DNA of 53,752 nucleotides from Candidatus Parcubacteria bacterium (GCA_023132875.1 JAGLXN010000008.1:1-53752); one strand, 5' to 3'; numbered from the stretch's first letter, positions 15,031 to 53,715 are shown. A program made the numbers and translations. The notes: a model not told the origin generated them from the letters alone.

Positions 15031-15041
15031 AAAAACTAAGA

Positions 15042-17160: not shown

Positions 17161-17177
17161 GGAAAAAAATTATTTTT

Positions 17178-19573: not shown

Positions 19574-19711
19574 AGGATATATACTCCTTTCTTTTTTGTT
19601 AAATCTTGGCATTTTCTTTTACTCTGCAGTTAAAAAAATAACCAGAATTACACTTTATTTCTTATTAATGTTATACTTACCTTGGACTACGAAATTCTAT
19701 TTTTAGTTATC

Positions 19712-19788
19712 TTCGTGTAAATATTAGTTTTATTAGTGTTTCTTATAATAAACGCTAATTGAACTAATATTCACGCTAAACAGACGAA
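19712..19788. repeat. TTCGTG..TATTAGT inverted-repeat element
   Basis: TTCGT/ACGAA ends and AATATTAGTT/AACTAATATT inner arms; relative at 14963. Confidence 0.65.
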
Positions 19789-19849
19789 TTATAAAAGTTT
19801 TGTAATTCAAAGTACTTATAATATTAATAATATAACAAAAACAAAAGAA

Positions 19850-32324: not shown

Positions 32325-32525
32325 TGTCATCCTGAACTTGTTTCAGGATCTTTTGTATTTTAGATTTAATTTATATTATTTAGTATTATCTTTCATCTAA
32401 AACGCAAACACAATTATTTCTTTTCTATATAGTAATTGCATTTTCACACCAGTCAAAATGTCTGAAGATTTATGGGTCTGCTTATTATAATAGACGATAG
32501 ATTCTGAAATAAATTCAGAATGACA
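32325..32525. repeat. GTCAT..TGAA..TTCAG..ATGAC MITE-like element
   Basis: Two terminal hairpins; right end TAATAGAC.ATAGATTCTGAA.TAAATTCAGAATGACA is shared with 33987-34096 and 52569-52687. Confidence 0.85.
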
Positions 32526-32529
32526 ATTA

Positions 32530-33876: not shown

Positions 33877-33986
33877 AGAACAGGGTTATAAAGTAAAAAG
33901 TTATAAAGTTTGTAAAGTAGAAAGTAATTATATACTATAAGATTAAATTTATATTAGAATTGTTTAATTGTCAAATATATATGTAT

Positions 33987-34096
33987 TGTCATTCTGAATT
34001 TACTTCAGAATCTTTTAAATTATAGGTTTTGCCTTAACTTGTTTCACAAGATTAAACATAATAGACAATAGATTCTGAACTAAATTCAGAATGACA
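33987..34096. repeat. GTCATTCTGAA MITE-like element
   Basis: TGTCATTCTGAATTTACTTCAGAATCT ... AGATTCTGAACTAAATTCAGAATGACA. Confidence 0.88.
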
Positions 34097-37889: not shown

Positions 37890-38010
37890 TGTCATTGCGA
37901 GGAGTGAAGCGGAGCGATAGCGTAGCGGAATGACGAAGCAATCCCGTAACTAAGTTCCTCGCATATAGCCACGGGATTGCTTCGTCGGCTATCGCCTCCT
38001 CGCAATGACA
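37890..38010. repeat. TGTCATTGCGA...TCGCAATGACA element, copy 2
   Basis: Same ends and GACGAAGCAATCCCG/CGGGATTGCTTCGTC core as 13009-13148. Confidence 0.9.
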
Positions 38011-38012: not shown

Positions 38013-39263
38013 TCATAATTTATGATTCAATTTATAAAACCACGAAATCAATCCTAATAAAAACACAATTACCCCCGCAATCAAAAAAGTGTTTTGAAAT
38101 CCGATATAAAAAATCATAATGCCACCAAAAAGAGCGCCAATTGCAGGACCAAGGGTTGTTATAACTGTATCTATTGTTGACGCTTCTTCCTGATAATTTT
38201 TAAGCTTCTTGGAAAGCAAAGCGCTTTTTCCACTTTCCATTGTCAACGCGCTAAGTGAGCTAATTACCATTACAAAAAACATTCCTATTAAATTTACTAC
38301 ACTGGCAAAAGTTCCAAGCATAATGGTTATTAACCCCTCTAATGTCATTCCTCCACTAATAGTTTTTGCATCTCTAAATTTCTCAACTATTTTTATAACT
38401 ATTATTGAAAGCGGTAAATAAGCTATAGCAGCCAAAGAAATAAATCTAATAATTTCCTCTTGAGAAAAATGCAACTCTTTTAAAAATAAAACAAAAAAGG
38501 CGCGGTAAATCCCGACTAAAATTAAAGCTGCAAAGAGAGAAGTTAAAATTACAATGAAAGTTTTGTCGGGTTTTATGATATTAAAAATCTTGGTATAATT
38601 TTTTCTTATACTTATTGTGGATGATACTTCCGTAGGCGACACGTCAACGTGTCGCCTACGGGATGATGTCAAATTTCCATTCAACCTCGCATAAGCATAG
38701 ATTGTATTCGCGAACTGAATTATAACACTCAAAACAAAAACACCCGTAAAACCAAATTTCCAAATAACAATTCCTCCAATTACTGGAGCAAACGCCGCGG
38801 CATAATGAGGCATTGAATAAAACCATCCAAAACTTCGGCTATGGCTGTCTGTTTCAGACTTCATTAAAATTAATTTCAAAGATACCAGCCATGCCGCCGC
38901 GGAAAAACCAAGGATTATTTGAGCGATATAAAAAACTGTTAAATTATGGCTTACGATCATCAGTAACGCAAAAATCCCATACCCAAAAATTCCAAACGCC
39001 GCGACTTTTGACGGATTAAATTTGTGGATATAATAATTTATTATTACGGAAGAAATAGCAATAACAGAATAAGTAAGAAGATAAATGCTTCCCACATTCA
39101 TTATTGAAAATCCGATAGAAATTAAAAACAACGGATAATAGAGCGAGAAAAGCTTATATCCGAACATCAATAGAAAATGCACCAGTGAAACATCAAAGGT
39201 GGTTTTTTCCATTTTCGGAAACCAGGAATATAGATTTTGGTGGTTTTCAAGAAGACCAAACAT
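38013..39263 (-). CDS. MFS transporter
   Basis: About 12 hydrophobic helices in two halves; FAPVIGG and GPAIGALFGG motifs. Confidence 0.85.
   Translation of the reverse strand: MFGLLENHQNLYSWFPKMEKTTFDVSLVHFLLMFGYKLFSLYYPLFLISIGFSIMNVGSIYLLTYSVIAISSVIINYYIHKFNPSKVAAFGIFGYGIFALLMIVSHNLTVFYIAQIILGFSAAAWLVSLKLILMKSETDSHSRSFGWFYSMPHYAAAFAPVIGGIVIWKFGFTGVFVLSVIIQFANTIYAYARLNGNLTSSRRRHVDVSPTEVSSTISIRKNYTKIFNIIKPDKTFIVILTSLFAALILVGIYRAFFVLFLKELHFSQEEIIRFISLAAIAYLPLSIIVIKIVEKFRDAKTISGGMTLEGLITIMLGTFASVVNLIGMFFVMVISSLSALTMESGKSALLSKKLKNYQEEASTIDTVITTLGPAIGALFGGIMIFYIGFQNTFLIAGVIVFLLGLISWFYKLNHKL
38630..38661. repeat. GTAG-type palindrome in-frame in the MFS gene
   Basis: CCGTAGGCGACACGT-CA-ACGTGTCGCCTACGG, encoding SRRRHVDVSPT. 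Confidence 0.9.
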
Positions 39264-39289
39264 AGATTTTTTTTATCAGAGTTTTTACA

Positions 39290-39369
39290 GGAGTGACACA
39301 CGAGCGAAGCGGAGTATGTTATAAAACTTCAACAAATAACAAACTACGCTGTAGTTCGTTTGTCACTCC
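39290..39369. repeat. GGAGTGACA..TGTCACTCC inverted-repeat element
   Basis: 9-bp terminal inverted repeat with an internal AACTACGCTGTAGTT hairpin. Confidence 0.55.
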
Positions 39370-39454
39370 GCTTATTTTATCATTTTTCAGACAAAAAAAG
39401 AAGAGGCAACTCATTTGCGATTCACAAAGTCATTATTGCCTCATTAATAATCTC

Positions 39455-40195
39455 TTACTTCATCCTTTCCTCCAGTTTTTTTGTTGCTTCTCCGAGCCGA
39501 TTCCTTAGTCCTTCTAAATGTTTTTGAGATGGTTGATCTTCTCGAAGATAAAAAGATTTGGCTTCAAATAGGTCATTAATACCTCCGGTGACATCGAAAC
39601 CACTTCGAATTTTTGAGGTACCCATATTATTAATAATATTACCAGTATGCCTCAAATTTTCAGGTCGTTGTAGTTCTGTGTGTGAAAGTTTTCCAATCTC
39701 ACTAAAGATTTCCACAGCTTCAAGCCAATTTTTTTCCGCCATTTTCTTTAATCCTCTGGAGTTAATGTGCCGCAGGATTGAAGCGAGTGAAACTTTCTCG
39801 CTTGAGATAATCCTGTTCATCTTATCTATTAGTTGACCAGCTTGTTTTTGATCGTCTAATAGATTGCTCCAGATTACTGATTCTAAATAAAGCAGAGCTA
39901 CTTTATTGTCAGGGTCTGTAAGATAGGTATAGATACTCTCTATCTTAAACGCAAAGTCGTGCCTATCTTCATCTGCAGAGGAGGTCGGAAACTTCAGATG
40001 AAGATAATATTCCGCCCACCAAGAAGATAGCCGAGTTGATACTTTCATATCAGGATCTTCTCCTATCACAACTTTTATTTCCCCTCCTTCTTTGACGACC
40101 TTTTCATATTCTTCTTTTGTCGTTGCTTTTTCATAAAGCTCAGACAATTTATCAGCCAGTTCTTGTTCTTCTTTGTCTTTCTTCATTTCGTTCAC
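39455..40195 (-). CDS. Hypothetical alpha-helical (TPR-like) protein
   Basis: ORF with amphipathic helical patterns such as WLEAVEIFSEI and HTGNIINNMG. Confidence 0.7.
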   Translation of the reverse strand: MNEMKKDKEEQELADKLSELYEKATTKEEYEKVVKEGGEIKVVIGEDPDMKVSTRLSSWWAEYYLHLKFPTSSADEDRHDFAFKIESIYTYLTDPDNKVALLYLESVIWSNLLDDQKQAGQLIDKMNRIISSEKVSLASILRHINSRGLKKMAEKNWLEAVEIFSEIGKLSHTELQRPENLRHTGNIINNMGTSKIRSGFDVTGGINDLFEAKSFYLREDQPSQKHLEGLRNRLGEATKKLEERMK

Positions 40196-40235
40196 CCCAA
40201 ATTTCTATACTTATAATACCAGCAAATCCCTCTCG

Positions 40236-40379
40236 AATTCACCAGTCATGGAAATTTGTTATTGAAATTCTACCCTGTCTTGACAGGGGTTCATGCAAAA
40301 CTATTGATAAATCCCGCTTTCAAACCGCTCTCAAGAGAGCGTAGAATAAACAATACCAAGCTTTCATAACTGGTGAATT
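40236..40379. other. Branched structured element of unknown type
   Basis: Outer stem AATTCACCAGT/ACTGGTGAATT, inner stem TATTG..ATTCTAC/GTAGAAT..CAATA, hairpins at 40273-40288 and 40326-40341. Confidence 0.55.
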
Positions 40380-40411
40380 TTGTTTATTTTTAAAAGAACA
40401 TCTGATTTTGC

Positions 40412-40439
40412 ATTGTATATGAAATGAAAAATATGTCAA
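40412..40439 (-). promoter_or_regulatory. Sigma70-type promoter
   Basis: TTGACA-16 bp-TACAAT. Confidence 0.65.
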
Positions 40440-40534
40440 CCTCCTGTCATTTTAACATACTTAAAACTGTCCCATTCCAAAAGATTAAGCAGAAGATTTT
40501 GTTAAAATGTTAGTATGTTTACATGTTAAAATGA

Positions 40535-41509
40535 TTAGAACCCCACATACTCAATCTCTTCCCTCAACTGAATGCCAAATCTACTTCTAATTTTTTGTTT
40601 AATTAAACTTATCAAAATAACAACATCTTCCGCTTTGGCATTGCCAGTATTAACAATAAAATTACAATGCTTTTCTGAAATCATTGCTCCACCGATTTTT
40701 TTGCCTTTAAATCCTAATTCCTCTATCAGCCACCCAGTAGGAATGGTGTTGTTTTTAGCAATTTTATTTAGCTCTGGATATTCTTTTATTAATTTTGCCA
40801 AATGACTATCGTCAACAACAGGATTTTTAAACACGCTTCCAGCGTTTGGATATTCAAGCGGCTGTTTCTCTGTTCTTAATTTTAAATACTCTTTAATTAC
40901 TTTCCTGCTTTCTGCTTCATCTCCTTTGCTTAATTTTAAAACAGCGCTTAAAATAATATATTTTTTTTCTTCTTTAAAAATGCTACTACGATATTTAAAT
41001 TGACATTCTTTGTTGTTTAATTTTCCAGTTTCCAATTTCTCCGCCCAAGGCGGACCAGCCTCGGGCTGGCAATTTCCAATATCCAATATCTCCACTTCTT
41101 TCACAACATCCTTCATACATTTTCCAAAAGCCCCAACATTATCTACAATCGCCCCGCCTACTGTCCCCGGAATTCCCGCCAAACACTCTAATCCAGTTAA
41201 ATTATTTTTAACAGATTCGCCAATTAATTTTGCTAAAGACAATCCACTACCAACAATAATTCTATTATTCTTAATTCTTAATTCCTGATTCTTAATTCTT
41301 ATTACCAATCCATCAAATCCTTCATCTGAAATTAATAAATTACTCCCGCCACCCAGAACAAAAACATTTAATTTATTTTTCTCCGCGAACTCCAATACTT
41401 CTTTTATTTCATCGTTATTTTCCGCCACGCAAAAATACTTCGCCACTCCGCCGATTTTAAACGAAGTGTATTTTGATAATAAAATGTTTTTTTGAATTTT
41501 AATTGACAT
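40535..41509 (-). CDS. murB: UDP-N-acetylmuramate dehydrogenase
   Basis: TSFKIGG.A, LGGGSNLL, IPGTVGGA, YRSSIF, AGSVFKNP and HCNFIVN motifs; start at MSIKI (41509) preferred. Confidence 0.95.
   Translation of the reverse strand: MSIKIQKNILLSKYTSFKIGGVAKYFCVAENNDEIKEVLEFAEKNKLNVFVLGGGSNLLISDEGFDGLVIRIKNQELRIKNNRIIVGSGLSLAKLIGESVKNNLTGLECLAGIPGTVGGAIVDNVGAFGKCMKDVVKEVEILDIGNCQPEAGPPWAEKLETGKLNNKECQFKYRSSIFKEEKKYIILSAVLKLSKGDEAESRKVIKEYLKLRTEKQPLEYPNAGSVFKNPVVDDSHLAKLIKEYPELNKIAKNNTIPTGWLIEELGFKGKKIGGAMISEKHCNFIVNTGNAKAEDVVILISLIKQKIRSRFGIQLREEIEYVGF
41041..41069. repeat. 29-bp double-hairpin element in-frame in murB
   Basis: Reverse complement CCAGCCCGAGGCTGGTCCGCCTTGGGCGG matches 4585-4613 at 28 of 29 positions; encodes QPEAGPPWAE. 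Confidence 0.92.
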
Positions 41510-41699
41510 ATTTTTGATTTGTAATAAAATATTTATAAGAGGTGAAACAAATAATGTACGGAGATATTGGAACACGACGAGAAGGAATACTTGAAAGGGC
41601 AGAAAGACTTCGTAGAAACTTTCCTAATTGGGCATTTAATTGGAAAAAAGAAACAACAACTAAGAAAGGTACCTTTTAAATAAACCTTTCTTTTTTTAT

Positions 41700-41830
41700 T
41701 GTCATCCCAGAATTTTTTCTGGAATCCAGTTTATCTCACTTTATTAAAATTATACGAGAGATATTGTTTATTGAAACTTACTGGATTCCCGCCGGAGTTT
41801 ATGCTGAATTTATTTCAGTGCAAGAACGAC
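41700..41830. repeat. GTCATCCC..GGAATCCAG/CTGGATTCCC palindromic element
   Basis: GTCAT start, GGAATCCAG/CTGGATTCC stem and internal TGCTGAATTTATTTCAG hairpin. Confidence 0.7.
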
Positions 41831-41839
41831 AATATTTTT

Positions 41840-43591
41840 TTACCCATCGCTTTCTCCCAACGACTGCAATGTGAAGAGCTTATAATATAGCTCTTTATTT
41901 TTTATCAACTCTTCGTGCTTTCCTTCTTCCACAATCTCGCCTTTGTCAATTACTAAAATTTTATCCGCATGCATGATTGTGCTTAGGCGATGGGCGATAA
42001 CAAAAGTTGTTCTGCCGGTAATCAATCTTTTTAATGCCTGCTGGACTAACAATTCTGATTTAGAATCCAGCGCCGAAGTTGCTTCGTCTAAAATTAAAAT
42101 CTTCGGATCTTTCAAAATTGCGCGCGCGATTGCCACGCGCTGTTTTTGTCCGGTGGATAATTTTACTCCCCGTTCTCCCACCTCCTGATTTATTTTGTCT
42201 GGAAAATTATTTATAAACTCATCCGCGTTCGCCGCTCTGATAGCTTCATTTATTTCCTGATCAGTCGCATTTAATTTTCCATAAATAATATTATTTTTCA
42301 AAGTATCATTAAACAAACTCACTTCCTGCGGGACAATTGCGATATTTTGCCTTAAACTTCTCAAATCAATTTTTTGAATATCAATCCCGTCTAAAAATAT
42401 TTTTCCTGAAGTCGGAATATTATACCGTGAAATCAAATCCATCATCGTTGATTTCCCAACTCCGCTCTCGCCGACCAAAGCGACAACTTTTCCCGGATTT
42501 ATTTCAAAACTAATGTCTTTTAAAATACGCCTTGTTTCGTGATAACAAAAATTGATTTTCCGGAACTCCATCTCACCTTTTATATCTTTTAATTTTACCG
42601 CGCCTTTTTGATTATATGGTTCTGTTTCCTCGTCAAGCAATTCATAGCCGTGTCTTACAATTCCCATCCATCTTCTAAAGCGGTTTATATGTAGTCCTAA
42701 CTCTCTCATTGGAATACTCATCAGTCCCAAATAACCGACAACTGTTACAATTTGTCCCACCGTTATTACGCCATTTTTAAACATTACCATAACGGCAACA
42801 AATAAAACAAAAATTCCAATAGCCAAAGAAGCATCTTGGAAAAAGGAGGTTTTATTCAACACTAAAAGAAATTTCTTAAAATATTTTTGGGTTTTATTTT
42901 TAAAAACTTCCGAAACTTTTCTATTCTCATATTTTTCTCTTGAATTTGCTTTGACTAATTGGATATTAGAAATTGAGTCGTGAGTGAAACCAAAAGCATT
43001 TTCATACGATTTTTGTGTTTCAATAATTGAATCAGTGATAGGCTTTGAATATTTTAATGTAACAAGAATATAAACCAAGATATTTATCGCGATTATAAGA
43101 AAAAGAGACCAATGAACAAACACTGCCATAAACACCAGAATAAATAAAAGCATCAGTATACTGGGAATAAACCAGATTATTTCAAACAATATACTTTCCA
43201 AGGCATCAGACGCCTTAATATAACGAGAAGCCAATTTGCCGCTTTTTTGCTTTTTGTGATATTGCGGTTTTAATTTTAGCGTGTGTTCATTAAGAATTAA
43301 TACAAAATCATGCATACACTTTATTCCTACTCCCATCCCGTGAATAGAAACATACCTTTTTCCCAAATCCCTAATAAAACTTAGAATCAACCATAAAAAT
43401 AAAATCCAAAAAATCACAGACATTGCTTCACCAGTAATAATCAAATCAACAATTTTTCCATAAATATATGGAATTATTGCCTCAATCATAGAAGCAAAAA
43501 TCGCCACAACAAAAATAGCATAGACTTGCTTTTTATACTTTGACAAAAACCTCCAGATAATTTTCAGATCGTCAATAAATTCCATAAACAA
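41840..43591 (-). CDS. ABC exporter, fused permease/ATP-binding (MsbA-like)
   Basis: TM domain plus GESGVGKS, LSTGQKQR, ILDEATSALD and IAHRLST motifs. Confidence 0.93.
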   Translation of the reverse strand: MFMEFIDDLKIIWRFLSKYKKQVYAIFVVAIFASMIEAIIPYIYGKIVDLIITGEAMSVIFWILFLWLILSFIRDLGKRYVSIHGMGVGIKCMHDFVLILNEHTLKLKPQYHKKQKSGKLASRYIKASDALESILFEIIWFIPSILMLLFILVFMAVFVHWSLFLIIAINILVYILVTLKYSKPITDSIIETQKSYENAFGFTHDSISNIQLVKANSREKYENRKVSEVFKNKTQKYFKKFLLVLNKTSFFQDASLAIGIFVLFVAVMVMFKNGVITVGQIVTVVGYLGLMSIPMRELGLHINRFRRWMGIVRHGYELLDEETEPYNQKGAVKLKDIKGEMEFRKINFCYHETRRILKDISFEINPGKVVALVGESGVGKSTMMDLISRYNIPTSGKIFLDGIDIQKIDLRSLRQNIAIVPQEVSLFNDTLKNNIIYGKLNATDQEINEAIRAANADEFINNFPDKINQEVGERGVKLSTGQKQRVAIARAILKDPKILILDEATSALDSKSELLVQQALKRLITGRTTFVIAHRLSTIMHADKILVIDKGEIVEEGKHEELIKNKELYYKLFTLQSLGESDG

Positions 43592-43693
43592 TATAACATT
43601 TATTTTAATCTTAATACCATGTACAGTCTATGGTATTAATTGTCAATTTACTAAAATATTTTTATTTAAATATCTTATTATCGCATCTTATTT

Positions 43694-45151
43694 CTATCCT
43701 ACCAATACATCTGCTACTTTGTATATATCCCCCGCTCCCATAATTAATAATATATCATCTGGTTTTATTTTCTCATCAATTAATTTTCTTGTTTCTTCCA
43801 AATTTTCAGCGTAGAAAATTTCTCCAGAAGGCGACACGTCGACGTGTCGCCTTCGTTTTATATCTTCCACTAAATCTAAAGAACTAATATTTTGATCGTC
43901 GCTTTCTTCACGACCAGCTACATCAAATATTTCCGCTAAAATAACAACATCCGCCCCGTCAAAACTGTTTAAAAAATCTTTATATAATTTTTTAGTCCGA
44001 TTGTGCTGATGCGGTTGGAAGACAGTGAAGATTCTTTTATTGGGATAAAATTGCCTTGCCGCTTCTATCGTCGCTTTAACCGCCGTCGGATGGTGCGCGT
44101 AATCAGAAATCACTAAGGCATTTTTATATTTCCCTTTTATTTCAAACCGCCGCCAAATCCCTGAGAAATTTAACAATGATCTTTTTATAATTTCAACTGA
44201 AATATTTAGAGTAAATCCTAAAGCAATTACTCCCAAAACATTATAAACATTAAACAGCCCCGGCACTTTCAAAACAAACTCGCCCAGATCTTTATTATTA
44301 TAAACCACTTTAAATTTAGTTTCTCCATTTTTAAATTCAATGTCACAACCCCGCACATTATTATTTTTATTTAAACCAAAGGATAGTGTTTTGAATTTGT
44401 AATTTTGAATTTGTAATTTATTTGTTATTTGTAATTTTTTCGCCCAAGGCGGACCAGCTTCGGACTGGGAATTTGTAATTTCCTCATCATCGCCATTATA
44501 TATTAGCGTTCCATCTTCCGGCAAATGCGAGATAAATTCCCTGAACGCGTTTTTAAAATCTTTAATGTCTTTATAATAATCCGTATGATCAAGTTCTATA
44601 TTATTTAAAATAATTATTTTAGGATATAAATTTAAAAATGACCTTTCGTACTCGCACGCCTCAGCAACAAAATATTTGCTTTTTCCAACTCTTAAATTGC
44701 CATCATATTTTGGCATGATACTCCCCACAATAATAGACGGATCAATTCCGGCATCATCTAAAAGTAATCCCGCCATCGCAGAAACTGACGATTTTCCATG
44801 CGTCCCGCAAATTGCAATTCCGTATTTATCATTAAAAACAAGCCCAAGAGATTCAGGATAAGTGATTGTTTTTATTTTTAATTCTTTTGCTCTTCTTAAT
44901 TCAGGATTATCTTTTGGAACAGCAGTTGTATAAATTACCAAACCTGTATCTTGAGAAATATTTTCTTCCGACTGTCCTATATAAATTTTAACTCCCAATT
45001 TTTCTAATTTTTCCGTCATCAAAGAAGGGCTCATATCCGAGCCACTTACTTCTCTGCCCTTTTCTTTCATAAGTCTGGCAATCGCGCTTAGTCCTATTCC
45101 TCCGATACCTATAAAATGAATTTTTTTTATTTTATTTAAGTCTATATTCAT
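43694..45151 (-). CDS. murC: UDP-N-acetylmuramate--L-alanine ligase
   Basis: IHFIGIGGIGLSAIA, GTHGKSS, VAEACEY, ELDHTDYY, RRFE, DYAHHPT and FQPHQ motifs. Confidence 0.95.
   Translation of the reverse strand: MNIDLNKIKKIHFIGIGGIGLSAIARLMKEKGREVSGSDMSPSLMTEKLEKLGVKIYIGQSEENISQDTGLVIYTTAVPKDNPELRRAKELKIKTITYPESLGLVFNDKYGIAICGTHGKSSVSAMAGLLLDDAGIDPSIIVGSIMPKYDGNLRVGKSKYFVAEACEYERSFLNLYPKIIILNNIELDHTDYYKDIKDFKNAFREFISHLPEDGTLIYNGDDEEITNSQSEAGPPWAKKLQITNKLQIQNYKFKTLSFGLNKNNNVRGCDIEFKNGETKFKVVYNNKDLGEFVLKVPGLFNVYNVLGVIALGFTLNISVEIIKRSLLNFSGIWRRFEIKGKYKNALVISDYAHHPTAVKATIEAARQFYPNKRIFTVFQPHQHNRTKKLYKDFLNSFDGADVVILAEIFDVAGREESDDQNISSLDLVEDIKRRRHVDVSPSGEIFYAENLEETRKLIDEKIKPDDILLIMGAGDIYKVADVLVG
43827..43854. 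repeat. 28-bp perfect palindrome in-frame in murC
   Basis: GAAGGCGACACGTCGACGTGTCGCCTTC, encoding RRRHVDVSPS. Confidence 0.92.
44440..44468. repeat. 29-bp double-hairpin element in-frame in murC
   Basis: Reverse complement CCAGTCCGAAGCTGGTCCGCCTTGGGCGA, encoding QSEAGPPWA. Confidence 0.9.
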
Positions 45152-45181
45152 AATTCCTTATTCATGATTCATAATTCAATT

Positions 45182-46294: not shown

Positions 46295-46436
46295 ATATTT
46301 ATATTAAATTGTTATATTGTTATATTACCATTTTTTAAGCAAAAAAAGAAGGGGGTGTATTAAGTATTTAGTATTTAGTATCAAGTAAAATTGGTTAAAT
46401 GTTTCTGCTAAATACTAGATACTGTATACTGTATAT

Positions 46437-47531
46437 TCATTTCCCACGCCTTGAAATACTCAACAAAACACCTGCTCCTACTAGCGAGGTTATTAATGCT
46501 GATCCGCCATAGCTAATGAATGGTAGGGGTATTCCGGTCAAGGGAATTAGCGATGTAATAGCAGCCATATTAATTAACGCCTGAAAAGTAATCCAAGAAG
46601 TAATCCCGACAGCAACAAATTTTCCAAAATTATCAGGCGCCTTGCTTGCAATTTTAAATCCTTTCAAAGCAAAAATAAAAAATAAGGCCATAAGAATAAA
46701 CAATCCAATTATGCCAAGCTCTTCTCCTGTAATGGCAAAGATTGAATCGCCTATCGGTTCTGGAAGATAATTGAATTTTTGTCTGCTACGCCCAAACCCG
46801 AGACCTAAAATTCCACCTGAACCAAGCGCCAGCAGAGCTTGGTTTATTTGATATCCAATCCCTTGAGGATCAATTTCAGGATGCATAAATACCATAAATC
46901 TATTCATACGATATGGCGCAATTTGCACCAATAAAAATAATCCGGCAAGACCTCCCGCGACGAGAGCAAAAATATGGCTTATTTTCGTGCCTGATGCAAA
47001 ATACATAATCACAGCCGTTAGAACAATAATACTAAGAGTGCCAACATCAGGCTGCATTATTAACGGAATAGCTATAATTAAAACCACAACAATAAAAGGA
47101 ATTAGTAAATTTGAAAAGTCTTTTGCATTTTTCTTATTTTTCTCAAGCCAAGCGGCAAGATATAAAATAAAAGTCAGTTTGATAAATTCTGAAGGCTGAA
47201 AGCTTATGCCTGCAATATCTATCCATCTGTTAGCCCCCTTTAGTCCGAATCCCAAGCCGGGAATAAAAACTACCAATAAAAGAATTAATGTGATAATTAA
47301 AAAAAACAAGGCATGCTTTTTAAATAACCTATAATCAGTCTTTTGAATAAAAAATAAAAGAATAATTCCTGGCAAAAACCCGTATAGAAATTGATGAAAT
47401 AAATAATAATGATTATATCCAAAATTGTTATAACTCATAACTACGCTCGCGCTTGAAATAATAATCAAACCGAAGATTGACAATAGTAAAACTGTGATTA
47501 ATAAAGTTTTATCACAACCATAAAATTTCAT
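46437..47531 (-). CDS. ftsW: Cell division peptidoglycan polymerase FtsW (SEDS)
   Basis: GANRWI, FQPSEFIK, QPDVGT, GYQINQAL.ALGSGG and PLTGIPLPFISYGGS motifs. Confidence 0.95.
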   Translation of the reverse strand: MKFYGCDKTLLITVLLLSIFGLIIISSASVVMSYNNFGYNHYYLFHQFLYGFLPGIILLFFIQKTDYRLFKKHALFFLIITLILLLVVFIPGLGFGLKGANRWIDIAGISFQPSEFIKLTFILYLAAWLEKNKKNAKDFSNLLIPFIVVVLIIAIPLIMQPDVGTLSIIVLTAVIMYFASGTKISHIFALVAGGLAGLFLLVQIAPYRMNRFMVFMHPEIDPQGIGYQINQALLALGSGGILGLGFGRSRQKFNYLPEPIGDSIFAITGEELGIIGLFILMALFFIFALKGFKIASKAPDNFGKFVAVGITSWITFQALINMAAITSLIPLTGIPLPFISYGGSALITSLVGAGVLLSISRRGK

Positions 47532-47632
47532 AGATTATATTGTTATATTGTTGTACTGTTATATTGTCCTATTGTTAAATTGTTAGATATTTTTATTTTA
47601 ACAATAGAGCAATAGAGCAATAGAGCAATTAA

Positions 47633-49039
47633 TTATATCTTTATCTTGATATTTTTTAACACAAGATGAATTATTCTGTCAAAACAAAATTTAAATTGCC
47701 GATCGTTTTTCATTATTCCATATCCAACTTGAATATTTGTATATTCCATATCAGAATTTATTAAGCTTCCTTTTTTTACAGTTTGAATTAAAAATTCATT
47801 TTCTTTTAAATCTTTCGCGTAATAAGTTTTCTCTTTTAAAATTAGTTTATCTTTCTTTATTTTGTAAATGCCGGAAGTCATAGATTTCACAATTTTAACG
47901 CGATTCTCATTGGTATTTCTTAAGATTAACTGTGAAAAATTGAAACTCTTCTCCTTGTTCCATTTTACAAAAGAAAAATCAAATGGCAATGGCTCTGATC
48001 TACAACTAATATCAAAAAACTCCGCTAAATGCAAAAACAAAAACGGCACTTGCTTTCTTTGGATTTGAAGTTTTGTAAAAACTGGAATTGAACCAACAAA
48101 ACGAGGATTAATTTCTATAAGATCAGCATTATCGCCACTAACAATAAAATCAAGACCAAAAATCCCCCTGTATCCTATTTTTTTCATATAACTGCCAACT
48201 TTTTTTGTATAATTAAATATTTTCTTTTTTTCTTTGCTTTTCAATTTTTCGCCATACATATAATCATTTCCGCAAGTTCCCAGTTCATTTTTGTTATAAT
48301 CAACTAATCCTGTAATTTGAAATATGGGCTGGCTTATGATTATACCAAGCTCTCCGACATGGACATTTACCGTATATGTATCGCCTTTAATATATTTTGA
48401 AATTTTAACTTTTCTTCCTTTATATTTTTTTATAATTTTATCTAAATCCGTTTTGTTCTTGATTAAAAAAGTAGAGTTTCCCGAATATCCTCGCTGGAGC
48501 TGAATGACATATTTTTCTTTCAAATTAAACAAACCCTGAAACTTTTCATTATTTTCAATCTTTTTTATCTCACTTTTCGCGTTTGGAATCCTAAGCTTTT
48601 TTGTTATTTTGACAAATTCAACTTTGTCTTCTAATTTCCTGTTTAATTCCCACTTATTGCCCAAATACTTAAAATCATTATTATTACATAATCTTGCAAT
48701 TTTTGGACTTGGCTTGAAAGTTATAATATCAGTCATTTTGCCTTTTGACTTCCTTTTTATATAACTCAAAACTTTTTTATCTCCCAAAAGCTTTCCAGAA
48801 TTTTTTATATTATCATCATCAAGACATAAAACTGAAACTTTTTCTTTTTCCAGATAATCTATAATATCAGTTCTTTGAGAACAAATTATATGATAATTTT
48901 TTACTTCTTTTTCAATCCCAACAGCACGATTAGGATTTGGAGTAACAAAAAATATAGGACCAGTTTGTTTGGTATTTAATAATTCTTTGATTTTTTTATA
49001 ATTATTGATCATTTTATAAATAATATTAAATATGAGCAT
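47633..49039 (-). CDS. ATP-grasp domain protein
   Basis: LEDKVEF, YVIQLQRGYSGNST, ISKYIKG and GYRGIFGLDFI..LIEINPRF ATP-grasp motifs. Confidence 0.8.
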   Translation of the reverse strand: MLIFNIIYKMINNYKKIKELLNTKQTGPIFFVTPNPNRAVGIEKEVKNYHIICSQRTDIIDYLEKEKVSVLCLDDDNIKNSGKLLGDKKVLSYIKRKSKGKMTDIITFKPSPKIARLCNNNDFKYLGNKWELNRKLEDKVEFVKITKKLRIPNAKSEIKKIENNEKFQGLFNLKEKYVIQLQRGYSGNSTFLIKNKTDLDKIIKKYKGRKVKISKYIKGDTYTVNVHVGELGIIISQPIFQITGLVDYNKNELGTCGNDYMYGEKLKSKEKKKIFNYTKKVGSYMKKIGYRGIFGLDFIVSGDNADLIEINPRFVGSIPVFTKLQIQRKQVPFLFLHLAEFFDISCRSEPLPFDFSFVKWNKEKSFNFSQLILRNTNENRVKIVKSMTSGIYKIKKDKLILKEKTYYAKDLKENEFLIQTVKKGSLINSDMEYTNIQVGYGIMKNDRQFKFCFDRIIHLVLKNIKIKI

Positions 49040-49071
49040 TTGGTATTGAGTATTGAGTATTGAGCTTGATA

Positions 49072-50163
49072 CTAAATATTAGATACTGAATACTGAATAC
49101 TAGATACTATTTCATCCACCTCACCAAAATTTTCTGCTTTATAAATTTTGCTCTCGTCGATTTTACCAACCTCAACTCTTGCTTTTCCAGAAAGAATACA
49201 AACAGCTCTATTAAATTTATTTTTTCTACTAGCTTTTATAATTCCAGCAAAACTCGCACAACCCTCTGAAGATGTATTTATGTTATTTTTTTCAAGTAAT
49301 TTTGTCGCTTCTTGAATTTCTCTATCAGTAACATAAATTCCTTTTCCTTCGCTTAATTTTATAAGTTCAATGATCTCATTTTTTCTTTTTGTATTTTTTG
49401 CGCCTAGCTTACCAGTGTTTGATTCTTGTTTTTGAATTTTTTCAAATTCAGATGCAATTGAAAATATCTTTCCACTCTGAACAGCAAATAGCTTTGGCAA
49501 CTTTTTAATTCCACCGCTTTCTAAAAGATATTTATATGCTCTGCCAATCCCAATAAATGAACTTCCGCTTGTTACGAAAGTAAAAATCGCGTCCATTTCT
49601 CCTAAATTCTCAAATATTTCAAATGCGATTGACTTAAATCCTTCTATTGATGAATTATTAATAGAGGGTCTTAGATTTTCTATTTTATATTTTGCTGTTA
49701 AATAATTCGCCAGCCGAATTGCTCGTTTTGATTTTATTATTATCGGATTATATTTTTGCATTTTAACGGTCTTTGCTTTTTCAGTTTCTGGAGATATAAA
49801 AATATACAATTTTATTTTCGCCTTCTGGCAATATGCAGCCGCCGCAATCCCTGCGTTCCCGGAAGTTGAGATCACTAGTTTATTTTTGTTATTCTGTTTC
49901 GCCAGTGAAACCTGATAAGCAAGACTCCTGTCTTTGAGTGATCCTGTAATATTTTCGTCTTCCCGCTTGAAATATAAATGATTTATATTTGGTAAATCAA
50001 CTTTAGCAACATTGTTTTGCAGGCGACACGTCGACGTGTCGCCTTCATTTGGGGAATCATTTAAACTTAACCTATTTTCCGACTTTATAAATTCATCATA
50101 AAGTTTAGCATATCGCCAAATGCCTTTTTCTTTTTTGTTGATTTTATTTTGAAAATTTGACAT
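49072..50163 (-). CDS. Fold-type II PLP enzyme (threonine-synthase-like)
   Basis: YFKREDENITGSLKDR (PLP Lys), STSGNAG, VTSGSSF and CILSG motifs; substrate unknown. Confidence 0.85.
   Translation of the reverse strand: MSNFQNKINKKEKGIWRYAKLYDEFIKSENRLSLNDSPNEGDTSTCRLQNNVAKVDLPNINHLYFKREDENITGSLKDRSLAYQVSLAKQNNKNKLVISTSGNAGIAAAAYCQKAKIKLYIFISPETEKAKTVKMQKYNPIIIKSKRAIRLANYLTAKYKIENLRPSINNSSIEGFKSIAFEIFENLGEMDAIFTFVTSGSSFIGIGRAYKYLLESGGIKKLPKLFAVQSGKIFSIASEFEKIQKQESNTGKLGAKNTKRKNEIIELIKLSEGKGIYVTDREIQEATKLLEKNNINTSSEGCASFAGIIKASRKNKFNRAVCILSGKARVEVGKIDESKIYKAENFGEVDEIVSSIQYSVSNI
50021..50044. repeat. 24-bp perfect palindrome in-frame in the PLP enzyme gene
   Basis: AGGCGACACGTCGACGTGTCGCCT, read as GDTSTCRL. 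Confidence 0.92.
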
Positions 50164-50211
50164 AAAAAATCATTTTAATATTTCAATATTTAAACAACTT
50201 AATCTGGGATA

Positions 50212-50239
50212 TTGCATAAATATAAAAATAAACTATAAT
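50212..50239 (+). promoter_or_regulatory. Sigma70-type promoter for the rod-shaped RNA and lysW-like gene
   Basis: TTGCAT-16 bp-TATAAT. Confidence 0.7.
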
Positions 50240-50240
50240 T

Positions 50241-50403
50241 TAAGGAGTTGGAGGTAAATAACATTTCATAATTTCGTCAGAATGTGCGCCAGATGTGCTT
50301 TAAAAAAGATGAGGAATAGCTAAGCTATGCTGAAACTTTTTTAAAGCGCAGATGACGTACAGGCTGGATGAAATTTGGAAGATTATTTACTTCCAACTCC
50401 TTA
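50241..50403 (+). ncRNA. Rod-shaped ncRNA, 6S RNA candidate
   Basis: 21-bp closing stem (50241-50261/50383-50403), internal bubble, 14-bp stem (50295-50308/50336-50349) and apical AUAGC-UAA-GCUAU; G-U wobbles favour the plus strand. Confidence 0.55.
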
Positions 50404-50429
50404 GTAAAGTTAATCATTAATCTAATACT

Positions 50430-50582
50430 ATGACAAATTGCCAAGAATGCAACACTCCAATTCCAATTGAGGAGGAAATACCGGATATAGGAGCTATATT
50501 GGTTTGCCCGTCCTGTGGCGCCGAACACGAAGTTATTGCGACAGATCCGATTGAATTGGAACTTATCGAAGAGGAAAAGTAA
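50430..50582 (+). CDS. LysW/AmCP-like zinc-ribbon carrier protein, 50 aa (not in ORF track)
   Basis: MTNCQECNTPIPIEEEIPDIGAILVCPSCGAEHEVIATDPIELELIEEEK: two CxxC pairs and an acidic tail like LysW, but ending EEEK instead of EDWGE. Confidence 0.85.
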   Translation: MTNCQECNTPIPIEEEIPDIGAILVCPSCGAEHEVIATDPIELELIEEEK

Positions 50583-50680
50583 GGATTACATTGCTCTATT
50601 GTTATATTGTTCTATTGTTATGCGTAGCACGGCAATTTAACAATGGAACAATGCGACAGTATGATGACGCAATAGTTTTA

Positions 50681-52246
50681 CTATTTCATCAATTTAACCC
50701 ATTCTCTTAAATCCTTATTAGTATTCTCTACATATTTTGAATAAAAATGCGCTGCGCCGGGAGAAATTAAAACAACACTACCTTTTGAAAGACCGGTTTT
50801 TTTATAATATTTTTTCAAAATTTTAATCGCCTCTTGGAAATTCTTTACTTTTATAAAATCTATTTTGTTCTTATTAATCAGCTTTCCAATTTCATCTGAA
50901 GCGTCACCGGGAAATAAAACCAGAAATTTTACTTTATCATTTATTTTCTCTACCAATTTTTGATAATCCATTCTTTTATTATCTCCGCCTGCCAATAAGA
51001 TTATATCTTTATCAAAAGATTCAAGTCCGGCGATTGCCGCTTCTGGAGTAGTTGCTTGCGTATCGTCATAATATTTTATTCCATCTATATTGTAAAGCAG
51101 TTTTAATCTATGTTTTGTGCCGGTATATTCTGATACGCCTTTTTTTATTATCCTCGGCTCTATGCCATAAAGATAAGCAACAGAAACAGCCGCTAAAACA
51201 TTTTCCAAATTATGTTTCCCCGGAATTTTTATATTGTCAATATTACAAATAGTAACAAACTCAGAAGCTAAGCGTCCTATAAAACGCTTAGCTTCTTTTA
51301 TTTTCATTACTATTTTCCCATCTTTTACAAAACATCCTTCTTTTAATTTTTCTTTTCTACTAAATAAAAATATTTTTGATTTTTGATTTTTGATTTTTGA
51401 TTCATTGGCTATTTTTCTTGTTTCTTGATTATCATAATTCAAAACCGTCCAATCCCCTTTCTTCTGATACCTGATTAAATTCTTTTTCGCCTCAATATAA
51501 TTTTCGAAACTTCCATGATCATCAATATGATTTGAAGTAATATTTGTTATTACTCCAATGCGCGGACTTATTCCTGAATTTAACAATAGTTGCGTGCTGC
51601 TTGTTTCCAAAATTAAAACATCATCTTTAGTCATCTCACTAAGCTTATCTAAAACCTGAACATTCTGACGATCATTGCCGGCAAAATAAACTTTAATTCC
51701 CCAACCCTCCTTATCAGGGGGAGAATTTAGCCCCCCTGATAAGGAGGGTTGGGGAGTTTCTGTCCAAGCCTCAAAAATATTATTAATCAATCTTACCGTT
51801 GTTGTCTTACCGTTCGTCCCTGTTACAGAAATTATTTTGCATGGCGCTAGTTCAAAATATAAATTGGTTATAGTTTTAAAAGGAACTCCGCTATCTTTAA
51901 GCTTTTCTAAAATCGGCATATTTTGCGGATATTTAAACCAAACTTGCGAAACAAAAACTATATCCGCCTCTTCAACGCCTTCCAGATAATGATCTTTAAA
52001 ATTTATTCTGATCGGCAAATTCAAAAGATGATTTAAGTCCTCTTCTTTTTTTTTGGATTTTAAACTTAAATGGGTATTATAGTAGACTTTTTTAAAATCC
52101 GCCTTAGGAGAAAAATCATGTCCTGTTATTGATGAAATTCCATTTGCAACCAAAAACTCCGCAACAGCGCTTCCCTCCGCCCCGCCAATTCCGACAATGT
52201 GGATGTTTTTGTTTTTGTATTGATTGAGTTTTTCTGATATTGACAT
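50681..52246 (-). CDS. murD: UDP-N-acetylmuramoyl-L-alanine--D-glutamate ligase
   Basis: VTGTNGKTTT, LETSSTQL, NITSNHIDDHG, PGKHNLEN, HRL and YYDDTQAT motifs. Confidence 0.88.
   Translation of the reverse strand: MSISEKLNQYKNKNIHIVGIGGAEGSAVAEFLVANGISSITGHDFSPKADFKKVYYNTHLSLKSKKKEEDLNHLLNLPIRINFKDHYLEGVEEADIVFVSQVWFKYPQNMPILEKLKDSGVPFKTITNLYFELAPCKIISVTGTNGKTTTVRLINNIFEAWTETPQPSLSGGLNSPPDKEGWGIKVYFAGNDRQNVQVLDKLSEMTKDDVLILETSSTQLLLNSGISPRIGVITNITSNHIDDHGSFENYIEAKKNLIRYQKKGDWTVLNYDNQETRKIANESKIKNQKSKIFLFSRKEKLKEGCFVKDGKIVMKIKEAKRFIGRLASEFVTICNIDNIKIPGKHNLENVLAAVSVAYLYGIEPRIIKKGVSEYTGTKHRLKLLYNIDGIKYYDDTQATTPEAAIAGLESFDKDIILLAGGDNKRMDYQKLVEKINDKVKFLVLFPGDASDEIGKLINKNKIDFIKVKNFQEAIKILKKYYKKTGLSKGSVVLISPGAAHFYSKYVENTNKDLREWVKLMK
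51699..51754. repeat. 56-bp palindrome in-frame in murD
   Basis: 23-bp perfect arms CCCCAACCCTCCTTATCAGGGGG/CCCCCTGATAAGGAGGGTTGGGG, within the peptide TPQPSLSGGLNSPPDKEGWG. Confidence 0.92.
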
Positions 52247-52252
52247 AATATA

Positions 52253-52534
52253 TTAAAATAATTGCTTTATACCAAAAAGAAGCAACCCAAGTACTCCCAA
52301 AAATATAAATATTATAATTAAAAATGAAAAAACTTTCTTTACAACAGAAATATACTTTTCGAATCTAAGTTGACCAATGGCATCCTTAATATTTTCCTCT
52401 AGTTCACTATCTGTCCACTCCTTAATAAAATACCAATCAGAACTTAAGGAATTTTTCCAATGTAATTGTAATTCAGTTTCTTTTTCTATATAGAGTTTTT
52501 CTTTTCTTTCTCTTGAAAGTTTTTGAATATTCAT
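52253..52534 (-). CDS. Small hypothetical membrane protein
   Basis: C-terminal hydrophobic helix; abuts murD. Confidence 0.7.
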   Translation of the reverse strand: MNIQKLSRERKEKLYIEKETELQLHWKNSLSSDWYFIKEWTDSELEENIKDAIGQLRFEKYISVVKKVFSFLIIIFIFLGVLGLLLFGIKQLF

Positions 52535-52568
52535 AGATTTATTAATAATTATTCAAAATAGTTAAATT

Positions 52569-52687
52569 TGTCATTCTGTCCACCAGCTAGCGGATTCAGA
52601 ATCTGTTATGTGATAAGTATTGTTCGTCTTTATTTCATAAAACTAGATGTAATAGACAGTAGATTCTGAACTAAATTCAGAATGACA
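52569..52687. repeat. GTCATTCTG MITE-like element
   Basis: Right end nearly identical to that of 33987-34096; left hairpin carries a CCACCAGCTAGCGG variant also seen at 4754-4788. Confidence 0.88.
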
Positions 52688-52728
52688 AGTTAGATATAAC
52701 TTTATGGACTTTTGACTTTATAAACTTT

Positions 52729-53715
52729 TTACTCTACAATCCTTCTCGCCTCCATAAAATCATAATTCTCAAAAACTTTTTTCAGACTTTGCCTGATGAC
52801 TTTTTTCTTTTCTAGTGAAGCGTGAATTAAGCTTATATTGTGCTCCGCCACAGTCTCCGATAGGAACTGCGGCGACTTTATAACTTCAACAATCCCCACA
52901 TGTTTATGCGTGTTGCTTTTCTTTATTAAAAACACCAAATCCCCTGTTTTTGTATTTTTTAAATTTACTTTTTTTCCCATTTCTTTCTGATCCCATGAAT
53001 GCTTTGGCAGAATTATATTCAAAGAATTTTTATACACAACTTGAACTAGTCCCGAACAATCAATCCCTTTCTTGGACTTTCCGCCAAGAATATATTTCGC
53101 ATCTAAATATTTTTTCGCCTCAGATGTTAGTTCCATAGTCCCTTTAGGGCTGTGGAACTTTCTTGCAATTCTTTTATTAGTAATATTTATTACTTTACCC
53201 TTAACTGCATAATTTCCGTTCTTCCATTTTTTATACAATTTTTTTTTCTTAACAACTACCTCTTTTCTACTTACCCACCCCAAAGTCAGATCATTTTGCT
53301 GAACTAATAATTGATCTTCGTTTTTATATAAAACGCGCAATATCTCGCCTTTAAACGCCTGCGAGCACCTGATTCTTTTCAGTATTCTTTGATTTATTAT
53401 TTTATCAGAAACAAATCTTAATTTCAAATCCGCGATTGGACTTTTTACAACCACCCAGCTAATTTCATTTCTCGCATGTCCATCGCTTAAAATTTTCAGA
53501 TTTTCCTTTCTGATTTTTATTTTCTTTTCCCTAAAAGCATTTAATATATGATCTCTCTGATTTTCAGTCAAGGCACTTCCCTTTATTTCAACACTGCTTT
53601 CAAAATTTTTAATATCAATATTAAAAACAGCAATTCCATATTTTTGCTGATATAACTTTCTTAAATTCTCTATAATACTATTTATTTTATCGTCATTGCC
53701 CATAAAGATAATCAA
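52729..53715 (-). CDS. NlpC/P60 (C40) cell-wall peptidase
   Basis: YILGG..GIDCSGLVQ.VY, HVGI and IHAS form the Cys-His-His triad. Confidence 0.9.
   Translation of the reverse strand: MIIFMGNDDKINSIIENLRKLYQQKYGIAVFNIDIKNFESSVEIKGSALTENQRDHILNAFREKKIKIRKENLKILSDGHARNEISWVVVKSPIADLKLRFVSDKIINQRILKRIRCSQAFKGEILRVLYKNEDQLLVQQNDLTLGWVSRKEVVVKKKKLYKKWKNGNYAVKGKVINITNKRIARKFHSPKGTMELTSEAKKYLDAKYILGGKSKKGIDCSGLVQVVYKNSLNIILPKHSWDQKEMGKKVNLKNTKTGDLVFLIKKSNTHKHVGIVEVIKSPQFLSETVAEHNISLIHASLEKKKVIRQSLKKVFENYDFMEARRIVE
53130..53158. repeat. 29-bp palindrome in-frame in the NlpC/P60 gene
   Basis: GTTCCATAGTCCCTTTAGGGCTGTGGAAC, encoding FHSPKGTME; intergenic twin at 6839-6867. Confidence 0.85.

Follow-up and report, generated by a model that had tools for sequence, protein, structure and literature searches.

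We describe short palindromic elements that are translated inside essential cell-wall enzymes of a member of the Patescibacteria. The elements are in a 53,752-nucleotide stretch of DNA from a Candidatus Parcubacteria bacterium (GCA_023132875.1, JAGLXN010000008.1), referred to here, at its full length, as the window. Eight GC-rich hairpins, belonging to five families (A to E), are in frame within genes: one each in those encoding a major facilitator superfamily (MFS) protein, MurB, a pyridoxal phosphate (PLP) enzyme and an NlpC/P60 protein, and two each in murC and murD. Our interpretation is that the lineage has probably been colonised by several families of short, GC-rich elements resembling repetitive extragenic palindromic (REP) sequences. 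These are translated in tolerant loops, and family A is tied to REP-associated tyrosine transposases (RAYTs).

Five families of in-frame palindromes

Family A comprises perfect, GC-rich palindromes of 24 to 32 nt. Three copies occur in the window (Table 1) and share the 24-nt consensus AGGCGACACGTCGACGTGTCGCCT, which can be written AGGCGACACGTC[G/A]ACGTGTCGCCT. The half-site, AGGCGACACGT, is found six times, as the two halves of three palindromes; the expectation from shuffled sequence is 0.03, and six was reached in none of 100 shuffles. As single-stranded DNA, family A copies fold at -12 to -19 kcal/mol, with z-scores of -4.9 to -7.2. The MFS copy (DNA fold -18.7 kcal/mol, z-score -7.2) is in a host loop that is hypervariable across orthologues. 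The peptide RRHVDVSP is shared by the MFS protein and MurC, and the PLP enzyme carries GDTSTCRL.

The remaining families are hairpins of different design. For family B, the degenerate murC copy has a fold z-score of -1.15, and another intergenic copy is located about 8 kb past the window start, in an 831,018-nt assembly. The family C palindrome in murD folds at -30.5 kcal/mol (z-score -9.35) and consists of two small inverted hairpins, resembling the REP doublets known as REPINs. Two intergenic family C-like halves match it in part; neither passed a search with the 25-nt arm of family C that allowed four errors. Copies of family D and of a variant, D' (53130-53158 and 6839-6867 in the window; L005 13485 and 14906, and L006 11314, in relatives), have the same pair of G-T wobbles, retained on one strand, and their stem shows a compensatory change from T-A to C-G. 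The conserved wobbles imply that folding is strand-specific, although copies are found in either orientation with respect to the host gene.

All eight strong intragenic hairpins are between 38 and 54 kb. None is in the 27 long open reading frames (ORFs; at least 140 codons) between 1 and 38 kb, where the exception is one weak intragenic hairpin at 14340. The chance of all eight falling in the 38-54 kb interval, which holds 30% of the coding DNA, is approximately 7e-5, a post hoc figure derived from ORF lengths.

An initial annotation, made from the DNA sequence alone, had listed many of these elements, and each is present at, or a few bases from, the position given. Its four in-frame families were all recovered; the count fell short by the family E hairpin in murD. 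The murD palindrome is 58 nt long, not 56. Among the intergenic copies, those of families B (4585) and D (6839) stood, and that of family C (7946) proved to be a related half only. The claim that no ORF is broken held: every host ORF is intact and full length beside its orthologues, with no reading frame disrupted.

Table 1. Palindromic elements of families A to E in the window.
Family and form	Position	Strand	Location	Peptide	Other features
A, CCGTAGGCGACACGTcaACGTGTCGCCTACGG	38630-38661 (24-nt core 38634-38657)		MFS gene (38013-39263, minus)	RRRHVDVSP	15-bp arms; GTAG tag
A, 28-nt perfect palindrome, GAAGGCGACACGTCGACGTGTCGCCTTC	43827-43854 (core 43829-43852)		murC (43694-45151, minus)	RRRHVDVSP	
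A, 24-nt perfect palindrome	50021-50044		PALP-family PLP enzyme gene (49072-50163, minus)	EGDTSTCRL	Second reading frame
B, 30-nt double hairpin	41040-41069	minus	In frame in murB (40535-41575, minus)	QPEAGPPWA	-12.3 kcal/mol; within 7-nt tandem array
B, degenerate	44439-44468	minus	In frame in murC	QSEAGPPWA	3 mismatches; TTTGTAA/TTTTGAA heptamer array at 44390-44437
B	4585-4614	plus	Intergenic, between iPGM and enolase genes		In heptamer array; 28/29 bases identical to murB copy
C, 58-nt palindrome	51698-51755		In frame in murD (50681-52246, minus)	TPQPSLSGGLNSPPDKEGWG	24-bp arms, 10-nt loop
C-like, two inverted halves	7946-7975 (CCCCCTGATAAGGGGG...) and ~8052-8092 (...CCCCTTATCAGGGGAG)		Intergenic		~80 nt apart; partial match
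D, hairpin	53130-53158	minus	In frame in NlpC/P60 gene (52729-53715, minus)	FHSPKGTME	
D	6839-6867	plus	Intergenic, 25 nt beyond stop codon of gene 6892-7938 (minus)		3/29 mismatches to NlpC/P60 copy
E, hairpin	51263-51296		In frame in murD	EAKRFIGRLAS	13-bp stem, 8-nt loop; -13.7 kcal/mol, z-score -6.9

The peptides are lineage-specific insertions in surface loops

Seven syntenic loci (L-numbered) were fetched from relatives with MurC proteins 72-77% identical to that of the window, and aligned gene by gene. The peptides RRHVDVSP, GDTSTCRL, EAGPPWA and AKRFIGRLAS are each missing from the syntenic orthologues aligned. The family C peptide of MurD is missing in L005-L007, and a related peptide fills that site in L004. 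L005 has FHSP.GTME too, its NlpC/P60 site holding a family D copy with two mismatches, and L004 has the peptide in diverged form; L006 lacks it. Hence, this insertion is an older one. In alignments with solved structures (including MurC 9ir5 and MurD 3lk7) every insert peptide of MurB, MurC and MurD is a gap, that of family E being a 14-residue gap against 3lk7. The AlphaFold model of the window's MurC has a mean predicted local distance difference test (pLDDT) score of 81. Scores below 50 occur only at residues 228-250 and 439-441, which are the two insert sites.

The same loops carry different sequences in relatives. For murC, no family A insert is present in P0002, P0009, P0015 or P0028, and variants (RRHSEMSPS and RRRHSRISPS) occupy the site elsewhere. 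The murC family B site holds a 1-mismatch family B copy in P0009/L002, and a heptamer array without family B in P0003. Similarly, L002 and L003 keep the heptamer array, without family B, in murB. At the PLP enzyme site, L003, L005, L006 and L007 hold different palindromes, one of which, ATTCTGTAGGTGCTAAGCACCTACAGAAT, is GTAG-tagged. The family C site of murD encodes C-like peptides in P0242, P0245, P0247 and P0268. The family E site is a hot spot, occupied in orthologues by ILKQVQND, PPSPPLSGGE and others, with a related peptide, DTKRPIGHLVS, in P0296. Variant D' (WLHSPDRAVEP) is in frame in MurB and the MFS protein of L005, and in MurC of L006. Further repeat peptides in these loops include PPLKKGARGIS, WLHSPDRAVEPIAQKGST and VIASE....

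The two murD sites are expanded in 42 and 30 of 64 orthologues sharing at least 62% identity. At 50-58% identity none of 25 orthologues is expanded; loop length is fixed and the proteins are constant at 485-493 residues. The difference between near and distant orthologues points to a process specific to one subclade. We conclude that the elements are lineage-specific insertions in poorly structured surface loops, and that the same few loops have been struck repeatedly by different families.

These comparisons bear on most of what the initial annotation had inferred. It proposed that a multi-family process adds peptides to proteins of this lineage, to be checked by orthologue alignment and structural mapping. 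The peptides proved to be insertions, missing from most close orthologues and falling in structural gaps and low-confidence sites, and other palindromic repeats fill the same loops of relatives. The observation is therefore confirmed and its interpretation supported. The reported concentration of elements in the cell-wall cluster is real within the window, and most likely reflects which proteins tolerate insertions. SecA (880-884 residues), FtsW (364-365) and HPF (140-141) have invariant lengths in relatives. Conversely, MurD (508-640 residues), MurB (317-373), MurC, the MFS protein, the NlpC/P60 protein and the PLP enzyme vary.

Family A is associated with a subfamily of RAYT transposases

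Family A is also present far from the window. An exact-match scan with its 22-nt core, using one genome per species, returned 30 loci, or 29 once a chance-like match in Blastococcus (75% GC) was set aside. The loci belong to Kuenenbacteria (6 contigs), Falkowbacteria, Kerfeldbacteria, Saccharibacteria and other Patescibacteria. Outside the Patescibacteria, the core was found in one Leptospirales metagenome-assembled genome (MAG), where 13 contigs hold 15 copies, and in one MAG that bears the label Gammaproteobacteria. Families A and B had no match when viral contigs were scanned. Beyond the 24-nt core, each copy is flanked by its own perfect inverted repeat, and one variant has A-T in place of C-G, a compensatory change. 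The dinucleotide AG precedes GCGACA in every copy except that of Blastococcus, which has CG. The full GTAG tag is found in the MFS copy and in many of the RAYT-internal copies described below, and most others have GAAG. In each case the tag is base-paired, with CTAC or CTTC.

Among dispersed copies, one is in frame in an alanine racemase gene of Kuenenbacteria. The contigs of one Kuenenbacteria MAG end at a family A element. In the Leptospirales MAG (L011-L038, CAZZCF01..., approximately 50% GC) copies are numerous; of those checked, the majority either lie upstream of a start codon or are not in any plausible gene. Their perfect outer stems, of 5-9 bp, differ from copy to copy, and the RAYT gene of this MAG has a flanking family A copy (L019). 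The sharing of family A between phyla suggests horizontal transfer of a RAYT/REP pair, or a binning error.

When ORFs of the family A loci were clustered, one family recurred. It scores 91.4 bits against the NCBIfam model NF047646 (REP-associated tyrosine transposase; cut-off 80), and also matches Pfam Y1_Tnp. The HUH motif and catalytic tyrosine are kept. In 6 of the 30 loci, which were selected by the palindrome, family A is inside this RAYT ORF, one copy being degenerate. Its position there is fixed, in the stretch from the SLKEN..IN helix to the FKWQ.SFHDH motif. Among 120 listed relatives this stretch mostly reads EG.....RL. Roughly 40 have EGDTSTCRL, P0121 and P0123 among them, and the rest have other peptides; as DNA, these are palindromes. 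For instance, the RAYT genes of L039 and L040 hold perfect palindromes of 48 and 36 nt at the fixed position. Compared with E. coli TnpA_REP (PDB 4ER8), the subfamily is approximately 46 residues longer, and the palindrome peptide starts the extra segment.

A profile search for this RAYT found approximately 200 clusters (50% identity) at E values of 1e-30 or below. In further loci, taken from metagenomes, an ORF-internal stem of at least 10 bp is present in 79 of 80, compared with 15% of same-locus control windows. In 11 of the 80 there is a second copy of the palindrome, lying outside the portion of the gene that was matched, by up to approximately 450 nt. When 69 distinct internal palindromes are aligned without gaps, they take the form nnYG(A/T)AGGCG-N14-CGCCT(T/A)CRnn. 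The perfect palindrome that members of the subfamily share can be written (G/T)AAGGCG-N14-CGCCTT(C/A), and it is its centre that covaries from enzyme to enzyme. The arms covary: 89% of cells are paired, compared with 65% after shuffling and 34-42% with slid partners. Double-sided changes number 330, against 117 in shuffles, and both sides change in 17 of 18 pairs. The central pairs are almost free of G-U, which argues for constraint at the level of DNA rather than RNA. On the same grounds, we rejected the possibility that the hairpins act as RNA structures (note that family D does keep its two G-T wobbles).

Hence, by association in other genomes, family A appears to be the cognate hairpin of this HUH/Y1 subfamily. 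The extended RAYT-internal palindrome, ATGAAGGCG...CGCCTTCAT, is the commonest flank among dispersed copies in the Patescibacteria; the internal copy would fit as their source. The RAYT genes themselves carry other palindromic repeats in frame, in L035 (1673-2242; PARLRLATKSLAGGQ) and P0189 (HACFAKLCGG).

Frame-compatible design and insertion junctions

Families A (24 nt) and B (30 nt) have lengths divisible by three and are free of stop codons in all six frames. Stop-free segments of these lengths make up 5.6% (24 nt) and 2.9% (30 nt) of random segments from the window. With this design, insertion in a tolerant loop does no more than lengthen it by 8 to 10 residues. Families C, D and E have stop codons in three, two and four of six frames, respectively, and their intragenic copies occupy open frames only.

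Codon-level comparison defines two insertions exactly. For family C, 63 nt (approximately 51701-51763) are inserted relative to L005. TTGG is found on either side, a 4-nt repeat compatible with duplication. For family B, 30 nt are inserted in a 7-nt tandem array. Direct repeats of 8 nt beside family B copies had suggested target-site duplication. We rejected this, since removal of 30 nt restores the heptamer array.

AT-rich arrays with a 7-nt period are themselves in frame within several genes: enolase (5712-5747), PGK (9064-9095), murB (41257-41301), murC (44390-44437), murD (51372-51402) and the 3' end of the PLP enzyme gene (49069-49109). They encode a 7-residue peptide periodicity, such as RIKNQELRIKNN and KLQITNKLQIQN. 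The arrays share loops with the GC-rich palindromes, and family B is always inside one.

How the elements may have spread

The proposed route for family A starts at the replication fork, where RAYT would bind the hairpin extruded on single-stranded DNA. The enzyme would then cut beside the hairpin and rejoin it at new single-stranded sites, in the manner of IS200/IS605-type enzymes. Selection would subsequently purge copies that break the frame or the fold. Survivors would be those in intergenic DNA and in tolerant loops of MurB, MurC, MurD and the NlpC/P60, MFS and PLP enzyme proteins. More tentatively, it is possible that a RAYT subfamily keeps its cognate REP as a perfect, translated, co-varying palindrome at a fixed site in its own ORF, instead of next to the gene, and that REPs with stop-free lengths divisible by three repeatedly remodel loops of peptidoglycan enzymes across a patescibacterial clade. 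The internal hairpin could be a master copy, an autoregulatory site, or both.

Several observations weigh against colonisation by RAYT-mobilised elements. Our reading of this genome's own scaffold covers 74 kb, i.e. the window and 10 kb on either side. Neither transposase genes nor a Y1_Tnp domain were found there. The contigs of this genome, of 831,018 and 92,185 nt, carry none of the 120 listed RAYTs closely related to the family A type. Consequently, the three family A copies in the window may be orphans. Furthermore, classical REPs occur outside genes and in hundreds of copies, unlike family A here, with three copies in 74 kb, all intragenic. Within 10 kb of two non-A RAYT genes (L039 and L040), dispersed copies were not found. 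Families B, D, D' and E had no match in 534 kb of RAYT-bearing loci, where there was one C-like match. Hence, B, D and E are confined to relatives of the window and are not linked to these RAYTs. Among the data read, no enzyme is linked to families B to E. Finally, the evidence for transposition is wholly comparative. The initial annotation's analogy with REP/RAYT systems, and its call for a mobilising enzyme, were therefore borne out for family A in other genomes and not for families B to E.

That no RAYT was seen in this genome (the 74 kb read, and the 120 listed relatives) is one reason to consider that no dedicated transposase is involved. Palindromes would then arise and spread by template switching at hairpins, gene conversion and slippage, with loops being hot because they bear repeats. 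The same loops do gather 7-nt tandem arrays, which are typical products of slippage, and family B is always within them. In addition, dispersed family A copies have copy-specific perfect outer stems, as extension by template switching would yield, and strict Watson-Crick symmetry, almost without G-T pairs, suits a copying mechanism. However, the 24-nt core is identical in three genes that are unrelated, and in different phyla, which makes independent origin impossible. Gene conversion requires flanking homology, which is not present, and the link to RAYT (6 of 30 loci, then 79 of 80) is left unexplained. We regard this explanation as unlikely. Mobilisation in trans, by a DDE-type insertion sequence (IS) transposase encoded elsewhere in the genome, is rather improbable too. 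It would agree with the restriction of B, D and E to close relatives of the window, as expected of a lineage-specific IS derivative, and with the TTGG that bounds family C on both sides. It would also agree with the 8-nt look-alike direct repeats flanking all four family B copies (8/8, 7/8, 7/8 and 6/8 matches). The periodicity of the heptamer arrays accounts for these flanks, and duplication is unneeded. Moreover, there are no terminal inverted repeats apart from the hairpins, and no transposase gene is encoded in the 74 kb.

Alternatively, the inserts might be removed from RNA, by hairpin-guided cleavage and ligation, or from protein, leaving mature enzymes unchanged. All elements form stable hairpins, and rRNA genes of members of this phylum are known to carry insertions. 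Nonetheless, removal would make length and frame irrelevant, yet none of the eight copies shifts the frame or is read in one of its own stop-containing frames. Genes are apparently unbroken, inteins are far larger than the elements, and older copies decay like ordinary coding sequence (e.g. RRHSEMSSS). Hence, we consider removal very improbable. It is scarcely credible that the peptides are ancestral functional loops, or that the palindromes are assembly artefacts. The source is a metagenome-assembled genome, and nothing else favours this. The initial annotation had named both as grounds for abandoning its view, and both failed. The 25 distant MurD orthologues have fixed short loops and solved structures lack the segments. 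A separate ENA assembly, of 831,018 nt, is identical over the comparable 11.3 kb, intergenic B, C and D copies included, and identical MurC and MurD proteins are on record for that contig; the palindromes are therefore not an artefact of assembly. Orthologous copies also occur in other samples (B in L002, D in L005). Thus, mobilisation of REP-like elements, followed by selection for tolerated copies, remains our preferred explanation.

Relationship to known palindromic elements

Rickettsia palindromic elements (RPEs), reportedly described by Ogata et al. in 2000, share many properties with the elements here. Both are palindromes that occur in a reduced genome rich in AT, in intergenic DNA as well as in frame in protein-coding genes, many of which are essential. 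Both form several families and add surface peptides without breaking the ORF. In-frame palindromes in conserved genes, recognised by orthologue comparison, are found in each case. RPE-1 is roughly 100-150 nt long. The elements here are 24-64 nt, and belong to a different phylum rather than to intracellular alphaproteobacteria. We claim neither a sequence relationship nor membership. RPE-4 and RPE-6 have been equated with CGTC-type REPs, which have no dedicated transposase (PMC3733652). Unlike RPEs, one family here has an identifiable putative cognate transposase family.

REP/REPIN-RAYT systems are reportedly known from Proteobacteria through work by Nunvar (2010), Bertels and Rainey (2011) and Ton-Hoang (2012). 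Like REPs, family A forms a short hairpin rich in GC, with a candidate (N)NAG or GTAG tag by the stem and a single-domain HUH/Y1 partner that aligns to 4ER8. Some RAYT loci have a flanking copy, and the family C doublet is REPIN-like. Hence, hairpin structure and RAYT association agree with the REP/RAYT definition. Extragenic location, high copy number and a RAYT in the same genome (window and 10 kb per side; 120 listed relatives) do not. In classical systems the REPs are located outside genes, flanking that of the RAYT (PMC5581495). In contrast, the palindrome here is inside the RAYT ORF, at the start of the insert of approximately 46 residues missing from 4ER8. Furthermore, family A is a loop-free perfect palindrome in which the GTAG or GAAG tag is itself base-paired, unlike the classical tag. 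Dispersed copies are translated in host proteins and copy number is low (three in 74 kb).

MITEs (miniature inverted-repeat transposable elements) are small non-autonomous repeats able to extend ORFs. The elements here share with them in-frame insertion. They differ in having no terminal inverted repeats beyond the hairpin, no duplicated target site around family B (an insertion of precisely 30 nt) and no parent IS, none being present in the 74 kb. Di Nocera et al. (2013, PMC3733652) described, in several organisms, REPs located in the coding regions of known proteins; they also described REPs that form part of larger palindromes. Both features of these GTAG and CGTC elements are seen here. 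However, intragenic units were exceptions, within largely extragenic families, in that survey, which did not cover the present phylum (PMC3733652). Here, all three sampled family A copies are intragenic, and loop hot spots are clade-wide.

The in-frame behaviour is thus known, as in RPEs and intragenic GTAG/CGTC REPs; the testable RAYT lead was not found in the literature searched. That literature gave no report of a REP inside a RAYT ORF. It also gave no match for in-frame palindromic elements in the Candidate Phyla Radiation (CPR), Parcubacteria or Patescibacteria, or for the element sequences and peptides. A survey of HUH enzymes makes no mention of intragenic hairpins (PMC6006769).

Patescibacteria have minimal genomes, thought to be under strong streamlining. 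This clade nonetheless tolerates selfish hairpins translated in essential cell-wall enzymes; MurD of one relative is enlarged from approximately 488 to 640 residues. The insertions provide a natural map of insertion-tolerant loops in MurB, MurC and MurD, and are a source of rapid, lineage-specific variation of protein surfaces. They also warrant caution in annotation, and in phylogenies that use these marker genes. How RAYTs recognise and move REPs is still poorly understood. If correct, the RAYT result offers a ready set of enzyme-hairpin pairs, each enzyme with its own substrate, for study of REP recognition and movement. In addition, the known range of REP/RAYT biology would reach well beyond the Proteobacteria.

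Genomic context and further repeats

The genome is of at least 0.83 Mb and is of a Paceibacteria/Parcubacteria-type member of the Patescibacteria. The nearest homologues carry the source labels Candidatus Pacebacteria, Parcubacteria or Patescibacteria. The window's MurC is also encoded on GCA_030630745.1 (DAOVML010000002.1, 92 kb) and on the ENA scaffold of 831,018 nt (ERZ23498665, ZHAN22-2 scaffold_1). GC content of the window is 32%, and the minus strand carries every long ORF except one. Genes between 1 and 38 kb encode glycolysis enzymes, an FeFe hydrogenase, thioredoxin reductase, a VirD4/TraG-like ATPase (22209-24041), Shedu SduA, SecDF, SecA and HPF. Those between 38 and 54 kb are MFS, a hypothetical gene, murB, an ABC exporter, murC, murG, ftsW, ATP-grasp, PALP, a LysW-like zinc ribbon, murD and NlpC/P60. 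A LOOT RNA (Rfam RF03000; 30685-30817, minus; 68.7 bits against a gathering threshold of 46.4) adjoins the Shedu SduA gene (29429-30628). It is the sole match in an Rfam search of the window, and no palindromic element is overlapped by any Rfam family.

Two additional palindromic families are intergenic in the window. One is a repeat of approximately 100 nt, with copies at 13051-13148 and 37890-37987 that match at 81% as an inverted pair. It has the sequence GACGAAGCAATCCCG...CGGGATTGCTTCGTC and the motif CATTGCGAGGAG, and a kindred element is in frame, as VIASE..., in distant MurC orthologues (P0097). The other is a hairpin, TGTCATTCTGAA(n)TTCAGAATGACA, found at 17137-17175, 32499-32527, 33976-34096 and 52630-52698, and also at 4757-4795 and 52562-52595. 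MurD and NlpC/P60 of L006 and L007 contain it in frame, as ILKQVQND. With these two, the palindromic families of the window number at least seven.

Tandem arrays with an 8-nt period are intergenic and just upstream of gene starts, at 2982-3005, 16150-16174, 17092-17113, 18960-18981, 19011-19048, 46304-46326, 47535-47629 and 50586-50621. Their units are TTATATTG, ACAATTTG/TTGACAAT, CAATAGAG and ATTGCTAA. Some contain repeated TTGACA-like boxes, and they may be promoter or regulatory arrays. An imperfect palindrome of approximately 163 nt (50241-50403; 81-nt arms, 73% complementary) is in the divergent region between the PLP enzyme and LysW-like zinc-ribbon genes, and could be a structured RNA or a larger repeat. 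Lastly, an AT-rich, internally palindromic pair of approximately 116 nt (14936-15051 and 19691-19806; 77% complementary) brackets a 4.6 kb block encoding a NuoF-like protein, aldolase, TIM and thioredoxin reductase.

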